A stretch of DNA of 64,000 nucleotides from Octopus sinensis (Eukaryota). The notes beneath the pieces were generated by a model. That model did not search any database, was not told the origin of the DNA, and saw only the letters and a program-made list of their open reading frames with translations. This document shows positions 2,615 to 52,901 of this stretch, piece after piece. The stretch is taken from the NCBI RefSeq assembly GCF_006345805.1, contig NC_043007.1:39122001-39186000 (forward strand), written 5' to 3'. The stretch's first letter is position 1. Every line of letters begins with the position of its first letter. A program made the translations under genes and the position numbers.

Positions 2615-2656
2615 GCTACAGACGCGTTTCGGGGTATTGCCCCTTTTCAATGCAGC
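2615..2656 (-). ncRNA. Minimal type I hammerhead ribozyme motif, U3-A8 variant
   Basis: Reverse complement of 3001-3042. Confidence 0.8.
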
Positions 2657-3000
2657 GTAGCCAGCCAGTAGGTGTCGCTTCCGACAATCTCTCTTCGATG
2701 GTTTTATTTACCTAGTTTCGGTGGAATACATCCACTTGTTTTCAATAATAGAAATATTAAAATAACTAAGTCTCTCTAAAAGAGAACAGCGGCAGCGTTC
2801 CCGGAAAATAATAGTTATCGCCATACTAATATGGCATTCTTATAAAAATAAGAAAAAAAGCTGTCCGCTTATTAGCTCCATGAGGCCATCGCCTTAAGTT
2901 AGCTATTTGATACACAAACTGTATCCATATAACCTTCGAAACTAGGTAAATAAAACCATCGAAGAGAGATTGTCGGAAGCGACACCTACTGGCTGGCTAC

Positions 3001-3042
3001 GCTGCATTGAAAAGGGGCAATACCCCGAAACGCGTCTGTAGC
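3001..3042 (+). ncRNA. Minimal type I hammerhead ribozyme motif, U3-A8 variant
   Basis: GCUGCA-UUGAAAA-GGGG caaua CCCC-GAA-ACGCGU-C-UGUAGC: stem I 6 bp, stem II 4 bp, palindromic stem III, GUC site. Confidence 0.8.
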
Positions 3043-3495
3043 TGCCGGTCAAGTAGTGTGGAGCGACTGACCTCCCTTGTTCGAAGGTTATATGGATACA
3101 GTTTGTGTATCAAATAGCTAACTTAAGGCGATGGCCTCATGGAGCTAATAAGCGGACAGCTTTTTTTCTTATTTTTATAAGAATGCCATATTAGTATGGC
3201 GATAACTATTATATATATATATATATATATATATGAATAAATAAAAAAAATTCACCCATCGAAATATATATATATATATACATACATACATACGTACATA
3301 CATACGTGCATACATACATACATACATACATACATACATACATACATACATACATATACACACACACGCACACACGCACACGCACGCACACACACACACA
3401 CACACACACACACACACACACATATGTGAGAAAAATAAGAAAATAGAGATAATTCAATTAATAATTATATCTATTAATTACAAATATAGACATAA

Positions 3496-3579
3496 TACCT
3501 GACAGCTGTTTCGATTCAGACTTTAAAGATTTTAACTGAAATAATTCAAATATTATAAAGTTGAATCTCGTCGGAGGTA
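3496..3579 (-). ncRNA. Hammerhead motif, C4 core variant with long loop II
   Basis: UACCU-CCGACGA-GAUUCA...UGAAUC-GAA-ACAGCUGU-C-AGGUA. Confidence 0.75.
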
Positions 3580-3696
3580 GAAAAAAGATATAGCATCACA
3601 TTTATATGTGTTAAGTGTACAGAACATTTCAGCTAATTGTGCATTGATTTATGGATAAATTTGGCGTAGACCTCATAAAGGGGAGAAAGGGTGTAT

Positions 3697-4133
3697 ACTC
3701 TTTTACTCTTTTACTTGTTTCAGTCATTTGACTGTGGCCATGCTGGAGCACCGCCTTTTACTCGACAACTCGACCCCAGGACTTATTCTTTTGTAAGCCC
3801 AGTACTTATTCTATCGGTCTCTTTTGCCGAACCGCTAAGTAACGGGGACATAAACACACCACCATCGGTTGTCAAGCAATGCTAGGGGACAAACACAGAC
3901 ACACAACACACACACGCATATATTATATATATATATAATAATATATATATATATATATATATATATATATATATATATACATATATACGACGGGCTTCTT
4001 TCTCCACTCACAAGGCTTTGGTCGGCCCGAGGCTATAGTAGAAGACACTTGCCCAGGGTCCCACGCAGTGGGACTGAACCCGGAACCATGTGGTTGGTAG
4101 ACAAACTACTTACCACACAGCCACTCCTGCGCC
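3697..4133 (-). mobile_element. tRNA-derived SINE family B (internal microsatellite, GTAAAAGA-type tail)
   Basis: Head GGCGCAGGAGTGGCTGTGTGG...GGTTCAGTCCC (A/B-box-like). Many copies in the window. Confidence 0.9.
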
Positions 4134-4583
4134 TATATATTTAGGAAAAAGAAATAAATGTGTAATATAATATATAATATACTCTGGGTTATCATTAAAA
4201 AGTATAGAGATAAATAATATATAGTAATTAACCGTGTATTTAAGTATCATATTGATATTGGGGTAAATATATTTATAAAAAATTTAAGTAATGAGGGTGT
4301 ATGAGTTCGTAAGTAAAAATAAGAAATGGAGAGAGTTATAGATATATTCATATATATTTCAATGGATTTATAAATATAAATACATTCACATGTTTATAAA
4401 TATATAGAAATACATAAAAAATATATAGAAATAAAAAATGAAAATAAATGGGCGTTAAATTATCTCATCTTACATATGTACTTACATATATTTACACGCT
4501 CATACATAATAAATGCATGTTAATATCTGTACAGAAATCACATGCAGAGAATTGTATAAATATATAATTGTGTAAATAATATG

Positions 4584-50349: not shown

Positions 50350-50920
50350 TTATTTCAGTCATTTGACTTGCGGCCATGCTGGATCACCCCCTCTTGTCGA
50401 ACAAATCGACCCCGGGACTTATTCTTTGCAAGCCTAGTACTTATTCTGTCGGTCTCTTTTGTCGAACCGCTAAGTTATGGGGATATAAACACACCAGCAT
50501 CGGATGTCATGCGATAGTGGGGAGAAACACACACACACACACACACACACACACACATATATATATATATATATATATATATATACATACACGACAAGCT
50601 TCTTTCAGTTTCCGTCTGCCAAATCCACTCACAAGGCCCGAGGCTATAGTAGAAGACATTTGCCCAAGGTTCCACAGAGTGGGACTGAACCCGGAAGCAT
50701 GTGGCTGGTAAGCAAGCTACTTACCACACACGCACACACACACACACACACACACACACACACATACATACACGTACACGATGGGCTTCCGCGTGGTTTC
50801 CATCTACCAAATATTCTCACAAGATTTTGGTGCGTCCGGTGCTGTACCAGAAAACACTTCACCAAGGTGCCGCCCAGTGAGACCGAAACCAATTGGTTGT
50901 GAAACGTTCTTAACTGCACA
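50350..50920 (-). mobile_element. SINE family B plus older partial copy
   Basis: Similarity to 3697-4133. Confidence 0.8.
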
Positions 50921-51592
50921 GTCAGCCTTGAACCTAATATTCACAACTGGAACGATCCTTTGTCATAGGTTTGCTCAATCGGAGCAGACTTGAGAGCTAA
51001 TTTCTAGTACCACCACCACCACCACCACCACCACCACCACCACCACCAAAACCATCACCACTACCATGACCGACAACGACGACAACAACAACAACAACAC
51101 CAACATGTATCTTTTATCTAAATCTCATCAAGGTTTTCAGTTAGAATTATATATATATATAAAATTTTATAAGCAGGTTATTCAGACGTACCTGTAACGT
51201 GTCTCCATAGCATGAAACCATCAGTAAATCTTATTCCAATACTGTGTACATTAAATGATATTTATGTCTCACTACATGGAGTACTTCTTTTGTTGACTAC
51301 CTTAACAGAACAATAATATATATATATATATATATATATATATATACAAGATAAGAAAATGGAGAAATACATCTAAATCAAATATCAATTACCAGATAAT
51401 ACTCAATCACATACTTTATTAAACCACCACATAAGAGACTGTAGGGTTAAATATAAAACGCAGAACAAATCAGTGTACATAAAGGAATGTACATAAAAAA
51501 GTGTGCATAAAAAGAGTAATGTTATATAATAAGTAGAATATATATAAAAGAGAATATAAATATAAGTAAATATAAATATAAGTATAGATTAC

Positions 51593-51719
51593 ATCTTACA
51601 GCTGTTTCGGCCATGTAGATAAGTATGTCTCATTTTACCAATATTAGCCCTTTATGGTTGGTCAATATATAGATATAAATGAGAGATTCACAAAAATATC
51701 ATAAGGCCTCCTCGGAGAT
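51593..51719 (-). ncRNA. Hammerhead motif, C4 variant with ~90-nt loop II
   Basis: AUCU-CCGAGGA-GGCC...GGCC-GAA-ACAGCUGU-A-AGAU. Confidence 0.65.
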
Positions 51720-52692
51720 TATGTAATATAACTCAGTCTACATATATACCCACATGGGTGTGGGTGCATACCCACAATACAACATATACATATACATATG
51801 AGTGCATATACTCACACTCCTATACATATAAAAATATACATTTACATAATGATATAAATAAATAATATAAATTGGTAAACATATATATGTGTTCCACATT
51901 CAATGTCTCAGTTTTTCGACTTAATATTGTGATAATAAACATACACAAATTAGTACCTAGATGCAAATATACATAGTCAATAGTACATTATATTACTTCA
52001 TAATAATTTCTAAAGTGTCATTAAAGTTGTCAATATCATTAATGTTATCATTATTATCATTCATAATATTATTAATAACGCTTACATTAGGATCCAGAGC
52101 GGTATATGTGTATGTCCGGATTCTAGTTAATAATTTTCCTTGGTCGCAACAATGGCACTTCATGCATTGAGTACATATTAGATCATATTAAACTTGAACA
52201 ATACTTTTCAATCAATGAACAACTTTCATCAAAACAATGATATAGTTTTTCTTTGAGGAAAAAAAATTAGTGGAATCTATTTTCATGCCGTCGGAGTGCA
52301 CTAAGTTTCCATAGCTCCGACGGCCGATGGAATGAAAATTGGTCCGACAAATTTTTTTGATATAAGTTTCCAATATTTTTATGGAAGTTATGAGAGGTAA
52401 TATTGTATGAGAGAGTGATTTCAATACGTGTTTCTGTTCCAAACGTTATGACGCACGTGTTATGGTTAATTTTCTTGATACAGTTATAATATTTAGAGAA
52501 ATATTTACAGTTGTGATATATATATATATATATAATATATATATATATATATTACGGAGATGTACTTGCATAGCAAGTGACCTGATCTGAGATCGTGTGC
52601 TTGAACGAAAGTAATTGCAGCGTAGAAGGTGTTTATAAGCCATTTAAGAAACACTCAAAAACCGTTAGATTCAATTCAACATTTAAATTTAA

Positions 52693-52744
52693 TTTTCCAA
52701 AATATTTTCGTCGCTTTGAGACCGCGATCTGTTCACTGACAAAA
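52693..52744 (-). ncRNA. Hammerhead motif, G3-C8 variant, in a ~205-bp element (52552-52757) within (TA)n
   Basis: UUUUGUCA-GUGAACA-G(A)UCGC ggucucaaa GCGAC-GAA-AAUAUU-U-UGGAAAA. Confidence 0.65.
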
Positions 52745-52865
52745 TTCCGTGCTGCTTATATATATATGGTGAAAGCAATAAACAAAAAGAAGACAGACAG
52801 TACTGGTGGGAAACGTTTTAACAAATATTGCATTAGTTTAACGTTTAAAAATGAAGGGAGGAGTG

Positions 52866-52901
52866 TCTTAATATTTCGGGTGCTTGTCCTTCATCAGAAG
52901 A
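52866..52901 (-). ncRNA. Degenerate minimal hammerhead motif
   Basis: UCUU-CUGAUGA-aggacaagcaccc-GAA-AUAU-U-AAGA. Stem II is weak. Confidence 0.5.

Follow-up and report, generated by a model that had tools for sequence, protein, structure and literature searches.

Can the 3-8 pair of the hammerhead ribozyme, a supposedly near-invariant C3-G8, be exchanged in nature for other Watson-Crick pairs? The question is raised by 64,000 nucleotides (nt) of the Octopus sinensis genome (NC_043007.1, positions 39,122,001 to 39,186,000), here called the window, which is rich in microsatellites and in repeats resembling short interspersed nuclear elements (SINEs). The 3-8 pair was discovered from structure and confirmed by laboratory double mutants. 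The answer that we consider fairly probable is that the window holds the 3' ends of many Penelope-like elements (PLEs) and two tandem retrozymes, each with a type I hammerhead motif that has C-G, U-A or G-C at positions 3 and 8, depending on the family, and that these motifs would be self-cutting, mostly slow, and would dimerise via a palindromic stem III. The evidence consists of the motifs, their fixation per family, frames for reverse transcriptase (RT) and GIY-YIG endonuclease upstream, and a PLE footprint of two fixed 3' ends, an inverted 5' arm and (TA)n targets.

Hammerhead motifs in the window

Sixteen type I hammerhead motifs, decayed copies included, were counted in the window and belong to about 13 families. 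Fourteen of them lie within positions 2615..52901, where a preliminary description had reported about a dozen, and all sites named there were present with the three pairs C3-G8, U3-A8 and G3-C8. Its count needs qualifying in that 2650 and 3007 are two arms of a single insertion and about half of the window copies are damaged, those at 25537, 30338, 42778 and 44.1 kb being decayed. C3-G8 occurred at 15653 (-), 26449 (+), 26800 (+), 30338 (+), 40359 (-) and 52897 (-), G3-C8 at 52736 (-), and U3-A8 at 3007 (+) and 2650 (-), with a second U3-A8 family beyond the range described earlier at 55148 (-) and 63373 (+). The self-complementary stem III segments reported before were found as ACGCGU (3007 and 2650), ACUCGAGU (26800), ACAGCUGU (3574 and 51715, both -), ACACGUGU (26449), ACAUAUGU (44.1 kb), AAUAUU (52736) and ACGU (25537), but the palindrome is imperfect at 15653 and 30338.

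The type I core (N3 U4 G5 A6 N7 N8 A9, G12 A13 A14, A15.1-U16.1, H17) with a paired 3-8 position is present in the families called A, C, G3-C8 and B below, whose majority lengths of stem I and stem II are 6/4, 6/5, 7/5 and 3/5 base pairs (bp), respectively, stem I being open-ended. The window copies at 25537, 42778 and 44.1 kb lack this core.

A first descriptor combined a paired 3-8 core with three stems and found 5 matches in the window against a mean of 0.45 and a maximum of 3 in 60 block dinucleotide shuffles. Once stem I was no longer required, 15 matches faced a shuffle mean of 5.9. The second descriptor, composed after the sites were known and permitting C4, a long stem II and one bulge, matched 7 of the 16 window motifs, compared with a mean of 0.085 and a maximum of 2 in 200 shuffles and none in the reversed window. 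Both full descriptors thus place motif density far above shuffled sequence, the control that the preliminary description had proposed. Family copies were searched in the 2.72-Gb animal genome, and the loci fetched around them carry L-numbers. Across 364,800 flank bases of these loci, a wider scan with any letter at positions 3 and 8 returned 17 matches, 16 of them paired (C-G 6, U-A 7, G-C 3), and none in 12 rounds on shuffles. These matches are not independent, because several come from additional units of those families through which the loci had been fetched; counted per family, there are 5 C-G, 3 U-A, 1 G-C and 1 unpaired. The predicted undercount by searches for CUGANGA alone is borne out by 10 of the 16 paired-core matches and 4 of 9 families being missed, and had already been published in 2014 (PMC4209133). 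Among 150 of the 190 matches returned by Rfam, the sole hammerhead-scoring site was 26794-26838 (Hammerhead_1, 32.2 bits, below the gathering score of 34); overall, Rfam missed nearly all hammerhead sites and returned microsatellite noise.

The G3-C8 family and its sister Penelope-like elements

Three window features belong to this group:
52552..52755, minus strand: G3-C8 hammerhead in a PLE 3' end, an element of about 205 nt; hammerhead 52690-52746 with N3 at 52736, an extra G, 5-bp stem II, AAUAUU and U17; predicted cut after 52700
63363..63413, plus strand: U3-A8 minimal hammerhead of family B, 3' end of a PLE that is sister to the G3-C8 family
55109..55158, minus strand: older family B copy with a U3-A8 minimal hammerhead

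The window copy at 52736 is slightly damaged, with two stem changes relative to its family, in which a 7-bp stem I, the extra G, a 5-bp stem II, AAUAUU and U17 form the majority. A pattern left free at positions 3, 7 and 8 matched 1059 places genome-wide with exact stems (control 0), and among 100 listed matches 86 were G3-C8, 14 had one change and none was C3-G8 or U3-A8. The features of the minimal PLE hammerhead, namely an extra base after A9, G10.1-C11.1 and a palindromic 15-16 segment, are found in both the G3-C8 and B families.

The 5' end of short G3-C8 copies lies about 56 nt ahead of the predicted cut, and their 3' end is at +87 or about +140, the latter being the end of the query. 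Longer copies extending 5' gave 371 exact matches genome-wide, and three of the 30 fetched (L263, L264, L268) reach a frame on the same strand. In L263 this frame has 511 amino acids (aa) with YVDD, a Cx3CxxC linker and GIY-YIG, and ends 1.1 kb 5' of the G3-C8 motif; L264 and L268 match its end and the 3' untranslated region (UTR) at 86-91% over 1.8-1.9 kb. Pfam scored its GIY-YIG domain at 22.6 bits, at the cut-off, and did not score RVT_1, the RT being assigned through YVDD and named homologues; the nearest named homologue of one PLE frame is annotated in Octopus vulgaris. Since the longer copies join the motif to an RT and GIY-YIG frame, this motif represents the 3' hammerhead of a PLE. No PLE frame was found beside the short copies in the first 58 loci, three of which had nearby PLE pieces not tied to the motif.

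The insertion footprint in these 58 loci comprised an inverted piece in 22 and (TA)4 at an end in 24, against a background of 10-13%, together with two 3' ends. Tandem units occurred at 3 of the 58 loci, which sets the family apart from retrozymes. No full-length copy framed by two PLE pseudo-long terminal repeats (pLTRs) was found for G3-C8 or B in the stretches fetched, all copies being 5'-truncated. G3-C8 copies begin at a fixed point upstream and continue across the cut site, which means that they were templated by uncut or rejoined RNA, in a sample that favours such copies.

Just 5' of the short-copy start, L263:8795-8825 carries a branch-point, pyrimidine and CAG motif resembling a splice acceptor, present in the 371 genome matches, and 11 of 61 short-copy starts begin with GAG-ATG. 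The motif could be either an intron end or a capped start with an untemplated G. An intron end in Drosophila Penelope offers a parallel. A matching splice donor was not found in the one UTR searched. Expression was set aside as evidence: the C4, G3-C8 and neighbouring SINE repeats were covered in three presumed-RNA runs and unique stretches were not, as read-through would also produce. In run X15 the G3-C8 element had a much greater depth than unique DNA, which is not usable as a copy number.

Family B carries U3-A8 in 37 of 38 listed copies, and its motif lies about 620 nt after an RT and GIY-YIG frame related to that of L263 (L131, L270; the L131 piece is without a Pfam match). Its footprint includes an inverted piece in 13 of 29 loci, two 3' ends and (TA)4 at an end in 5 of 29 against the same background. 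A third frame, in L267, is followed by a C3-G8 motif. This C3-G8 sister family, also seen in L057 and L077 (L267:8350-8600), has a non-palindromic stem III.

The frames therefore stand 0.5-1.1 kb upstream of G3-C8, U3-A8 (B) and C3-G8 sister motifs. They are 41-55% identical overall, that of L263 sharing 41-52% identity with the frames ahead of the U3-A8 and C3-G8 motifs, and they form one group with a support of 98 in the Shimodaira-Hasegawa-like approximate likelihood ratio test (SH-aLRT) of a quick tree with 19 rows, four of them short. The 3' UTRs of the three families align, and positions 3 and 8 are paired in all ten aligned rows (UA 5, GC 3, CG 2), with lower values in slid controls. 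One stem II pair changes on both sides across the sister families, two C3-G8 rows being misaligned in stem II there. Because the ten rows represent three families, they amount to at least two double changes rather than ten events. To judge from this alignment, the three paired forms within related PLEs make it likely that selection preserves the fold.

By motif inspection, L263 and L131 show the CX2-5CxxC linker and CCHH of Neptune-type PLEs with a C-terminal endonuclease (Craig et al. 2021, PMC8557442), which have in common with the families here the RT, the linker, GIY-YIG with CCHH, the (TA)n bias, the tail and the inverted 5' copy; this likeness is one of motifs. Identity between the L263 frame and a 781-aa PLE of the same genome is only 28% over 128 aa. 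That PLE belongs to a young family (L132, L133, L136 and others) with intact 781-aa RT and GIY-YIG frames and an upstream overlapping frame. Some of its copies have a U3-A8 hammerhead within the 3' UTR, a U3-A8 match lying 3' of the domain in 7 of 30 GIY-YIG loci. Given these intact frames, enzymes for mobilisation exist in the genome. Broken PLE RT pieces that are 56% identical to the 781-aa family lie in the window at 46181-46925 (-).

Tandem retrozyme-like families and further copies

Families A and C are represented in the window as follows:
2385..3212: family A insertion, a 362-363-nt non-coding retrozyme-like monomer; 1.5 units on the minus strand (2385-2940) joined 5'-to-5' to 0.76 unit on the plus strand (2937-3212), both outer ends in (TA)n
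2997..3046, plus strand: type I hammerhead with U3-A8, N3 at 3007, 6-bp stem I, 4-bp stem II, palindrome ACGCGU; predicted cut after GUC at 3036
2611..2660, minus strand: counterpart of that U3-A8 hammerhead on the inverted arm (N3 at 2650)
26636..26997, plus strand: single unit of family C, a tandem retrozyme-like monomer of 352-353 nt, with a canonical C3-G8 hammerhead (26790-26842) whose palindrome is ACUCGAGU; cleavage predicted after the GUC at 26832

Copies of family A are 99% identical. Their U3-A8 core was found in 33 of 33 copies, and a pattern free at 3, 7 and 8 gave 1028 genome-wide matches (control 0) with U3-A8 in 100 of 100 listed; in family C, C3-G8 was found in 35 of 35 copies. 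Together with the 86 of 100 listed for G3-C8 and the C4 counts below, this agrees with the earlier expectation that variant cores are fixed per family. Both families have the canonical build of a 6-bp stem I, a 4-5-bp stem II and GUC. Their stem I is interrupted by an internal loop after 6 bp, loop II is of the CAAU type, and unlike the PLE minimal hammerhead they have no extra base after A9. The motifs had been described as PLE-type hammerheads, which fits several families tied to PLE frames, but the best-formed sites, 3007 and 26800, are canonical hammerheads of tandem retrozymes. Stem III consists of 1 bp and a loop in family A and of 2 bp and a tetraloop in family C. By analogy with published retrozymes (PMC7229834), the former would need a dimer and the latter, and with it 26800, may not. 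Self-duplex energies of stem III were -7.5 (A) and -10.7 (C) kcal/mol.

The units have a guanine-cytosine (GC) content of 42-43% and are strongly self-paired as circles, with circular minimum free energies of -119.6 (A) and -117.4 (C) kcal/mol (z -7.0 and -6.7, 100 shuffles each). Tandem pieces occurred in 16 of 17 family A loci and 12 of 17 family C loci, with arms of up to 3.6 and 4.4 units, respectively, that continue across the cut site and face outward into (TA)n. The 3' ends fell at +176-179 or +236-239 in 31 of 32 cases for A and at +170-173 or +216-224 in 22 of 23 for C, which makes two places about 60 and 45 nt apart. An inverted 5' piece was present in 15 of 17 (A) and 6 of 17 (C) loci, and (TA)4 at an end in all 17 loci of each family compared with 10-13% in the background. 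Outward arms, two fixed 3' ends and (TA)n are the tail and inversion footprint of PLEs (PMC8557442, PMC11167929). This footprint is the sole tie of A and C to PLEs: no homology to a PLE pLTR was found, nor an RT or GIY-YIG frame in the loci examined. In family A, every unit of a locus has the same private variant in four cases, three of which extend over both arms, a pattern that suits copying from one circular template.

In family A loci L001-L020, 9 of 32 arm 5' ends fall at monomer positions 39-45, a cluster away from the cut site that possibly marks a stop or switch point of reverse transcription. The first 800 bases of L245 contain a U3-A8 hammerhead like that of family C in stems II and III, judged by its letters possibly a sibling retrozyme of family C with another 3-8 pair. 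A and C were rejected as related families, since the hammerhead alone is common to them. The family A monomer was covered by contigs of four presumed-RNA runs, which fits read-through of any repeat and was not used as evidence.

The remaining motifs of the window are the following:
3491..3584, minus strand: C3-G8 hammerhead with C4, core CCGACGA at 3574, stem II region of 55 nt with palindrome ACAGCUGU in stem III; copies of this older family are 82-90% identical
51316..52141, minus strand: young C4 family (97-98%), hammerhead 51587-51725 with N3 at 51715, family core CCGAAGA, 100-nt stem II region, palindrome ACAGCUGU
15584..15663, minus strand: C3-G8 hammerhead with long stem II and 2-bp stem I; decayed relative at 42742-42788 (-)
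25527..25573, plus strand: decayed minimal hammerhead, U3.G8 here and C3 in most relatives, palindrome ACGU; at least 9 related loci
26439..26532, plus strand: C3-G8 hammerhead broken off just 5' of C3, palindrome ACACGUGU
30328..30382, plus strand: decayed C3-G8 hammerhead with mismatches in stems II and III
40320..40369, minus strand: C3-G8 minimal hammerhead with an extra U, within an imperfect inverted pair at 40270-40571
44082..44178, minus strand: decayed copy of a C3-G8 family, core lost, 11-bp stem II, palindrome ACAUAUGU
52860..52907, minus strand: weak C3-G8 minimal hammerhead with 2-bp stem II

C4, which the preliminary description had wanted allowed in searches, is found in the cores of the two ACAGCUGU sites. 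C at position 4 is present in 21 of 23 copies of the 3574 family and 21 of 21 of the 51715 family (one copy without G5), and both families therefore depart from the U4 of the type I hammerhead. A PLE frame was found for neither C4 family, six larger loci of the 51715 family included. Split-core hammerheads at 3.5, 44.1 and 51.6 kb were considered and rejected, the strand order being ordinary with a long stem II. GIY-YIG-like frame pieces lie 5' of the motif of the 44.1-kb family in L169 and L179. As the 26449 copy ends just 5' of C3, the 5' strand of its stem I is lost, and a relative in L183 (97.5%) has stem I. No relative of 52897 was found among 40 candidates scored, and none of 30338, 40359 or 52897 among the matches listed in the flank scan, no dedicated family search being made.

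The same 82-nt piece (93%) stands at 26358-26439 and 30184-30265, just 5' of two different hammerheads. Elsewhere, the window contains an RNase MRP RNA gene at 25038-25291 (+) (Rfam RF00030, 67 bits against a gathering score of 50), two abundant SINE-like families (4636-5278, 55757-56229 and dispersed) that include tandem runs (184 and 239 nt), a satellite with 54 copies of a 14-nt unit at 47783-48545, and a short telomere-like (CCCTAA)n run at 61020-61055.

Known systems and the possible activity of the variant cores

Minimal hammerheads with a short stem III are known from the pLTRs of metazoan PLEs, with U3-A8 in Cercyon of Schistosoma mansoni, where the standard descriptor misses about 1,300 extra matches (Cervera and De la Pena 2014, PMC4209133). 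They have much in common with the PLE motifs of the window: the type I order, the extra base after A9, G10.1-C11.1, the palindromic stem III, the frequent U17, the position 3' of an RT and GIY-YIG frame, the inverted pairs and the U3-A8 cores missed by descriptors. The 56-row alignment of that work (Fig. S3) contains C3-G8, two U3-A8 and one U3.G8 and no G3-C8, C4 or cephalopod, whereas here three paired states occur across sister families of one genome. Palindromic dimers are likewise published (PMC4209133, PMC6765202). U3-A8 is natural and active and covaries in nature, and a viroid tolerates U4C, which weakens cutting (Perreault et al. 2011, PMC3088659). The passages of that study covered here make no mention of G3-C8, and two animal repeat families of the window have C4 as a fixed state. 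Metazoan non-LTR retrozymes (Cervera and de la Pena 2020, PMC7229834; Li et al., preprint 10.64898/2026.07.22.740005) resemble A and C in their tandem non-coding units of 350-365 nt with GC below 45%, a canonical type I hammerhead per unit, a strongly self-paired circle and PLEs in the same genome. They were shown to cut and to form circular RNA, whereas A and C are known from sequence alone and A has U3-A8.

No natural G3-C8 was found in the literature covered, octopus and other cephalopods included; Lunse et al. 2017, Przybilski and Hammann 2007, Martick and Scott 2006 and two supplements lie outside that coverage, and any of them could list one. Engineered, partly active G3-C8 mutants are on record (PMC11167929, PMC8495972, PMC3884650; reportedly also Martick and Scott 2006), among them C3G/G8C in the PAc (Anolis) PLE hammerhead, where it partly restores cutting and where folding depends on the PLE protein (PMC11167929). 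The swapped pair is the same, but here it characterises a natural family that numbers at least 1059 copies with exact stems. U3-A8 and its undercount, dense PLE hammerheads, palindromic dimers and retrozymes are already published; new here are G3-C8 tied to a PLE frame and the sister-family series.

In the mechanism proposed, one lineage would have undergone at least two double changes while selection on its source elements preserved pairing between positions 3 and 8. RNAs of families A and C would be cleaved to monomers, close into circles and be copied in trans by a PLE enzyme, the G3-C8/U17 motif would be weak and may need PLE protein, and most genomic G3-C8 copies would stem from uncut RNA. 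Solitary and decayed window copies are probably inert. A natural working G3-C8 hammerhead, in one PLE lineage that crossed the supposedly near-invariant C3-G8 into C-G, U-A and G-C and in which a slow ribozyme, assisted by dimers or protein, leaves most pLTR-started RNAs uncut as templates, is put forward tentatively.

Several observations weigh against self-cutting PLE and retrozyme motifs. The 5' ends of copies are not piled up at the predicted cut in any family, the G3-C8 sample favouring full-length copies, and isolated fragments of A, C and B have a lowest-energy fold other than the hammerhead. The palindromes made of A and U alone are weak, the AAUAUU (G3-C8) and AAUU (B) duplexes being barely stable at -0.2 and 0 kcal/mol, and U17, C4 and C9 states occur, C9 in two of three places of the L267 family with A in one. 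Family B has a stem I of 3 bp and lacks G12 in 7 of 38 copies, and the units of family A do not share 22 of its 26 variant sites. Changes at positions 3 and 8 of G3-C8 copies (5 and 9 of 100) are about as frequent as at the free position 7 (5 of 100); decay there being no slower, fixation of G3-C8 shows the state of the source only. Three states in three families are few events. PLE hammerheads that cut poorly or were dispensable have been described (PMC4209133, PMC11167929, 10.64898/2026.07.22.740005), eight of nine frog retrozyme dimers showed no in vitro cleavage (10.64898/2026.07.22.740005), and mutants of the PAc hammerhead left PLE insertion in vitro unchanged (PMC11167929).

These points would also suit variant cores (G3-C8, C4, C9, family B) that are dead or nearly dead and carried by elements not needing them, with the retrozyme hammerheads alone cutting. 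The weak stems I and III, U17, the C9 of the sister family and the lack of copy ends at the cut site agree with this, as do the dispensable cutting in vitro and the spread of Naiads without canonical hammerheads (PMC8557442). Such cores should, however, drift to an unpaired 3-8, and 16 of the 17 intact-looking matches are paired; moreover, C-G to G-C needs two transversions while G5, A6, A9, G12-A14 and A15.1-U16.1 stay. Loss of activity in the variant cores is held to be unlikely. The fold might instead be kept as a structural signal that binds protein or places the two reverse-transcription starts 90-240 nt downstream, catalysis being secondary. Fixed 3' ends at set distances from the motif in three families and the protein-dependent folding of PAc speak for it, but conservation falls on precisely the catalytic letters, the active conformation includes the 3-8 pair (PMC8495972) and the hammerhead mutants left insertion unchanged; a mainly structural role seems more improbable still. 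Chance matches from AT-rich, repeat-rich DNA are the least credible source. Loose descriptors do match shuffles when stem I is not required, and 52897 and 30338, which are without family support, may yet be such matches; the main families are already refuted as chance by the strict descriptors (7 against 0.085, 17 against 0), and motifs occupy the places known for PLE hammerheads.

A family-specific, paired 3-8 contact in self-cutting PLE and retrozyme motifs remains the preferred reading. Neither a new ribozyme class nor a new element class is revealed. Search descriptors should be widened, as over half of the intact-looking matches are not CUGANGA. A natural lineage with three paired states would, if true, be comparative proof of the 3-8 contact. 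The sister families with strong and weak cores, together with two young retrozymes of PLE footprint in one genome, make the role of PLE hammerheads testable, and the sister families would, if the reading is true, form a natural series on what these hammerheads are for.

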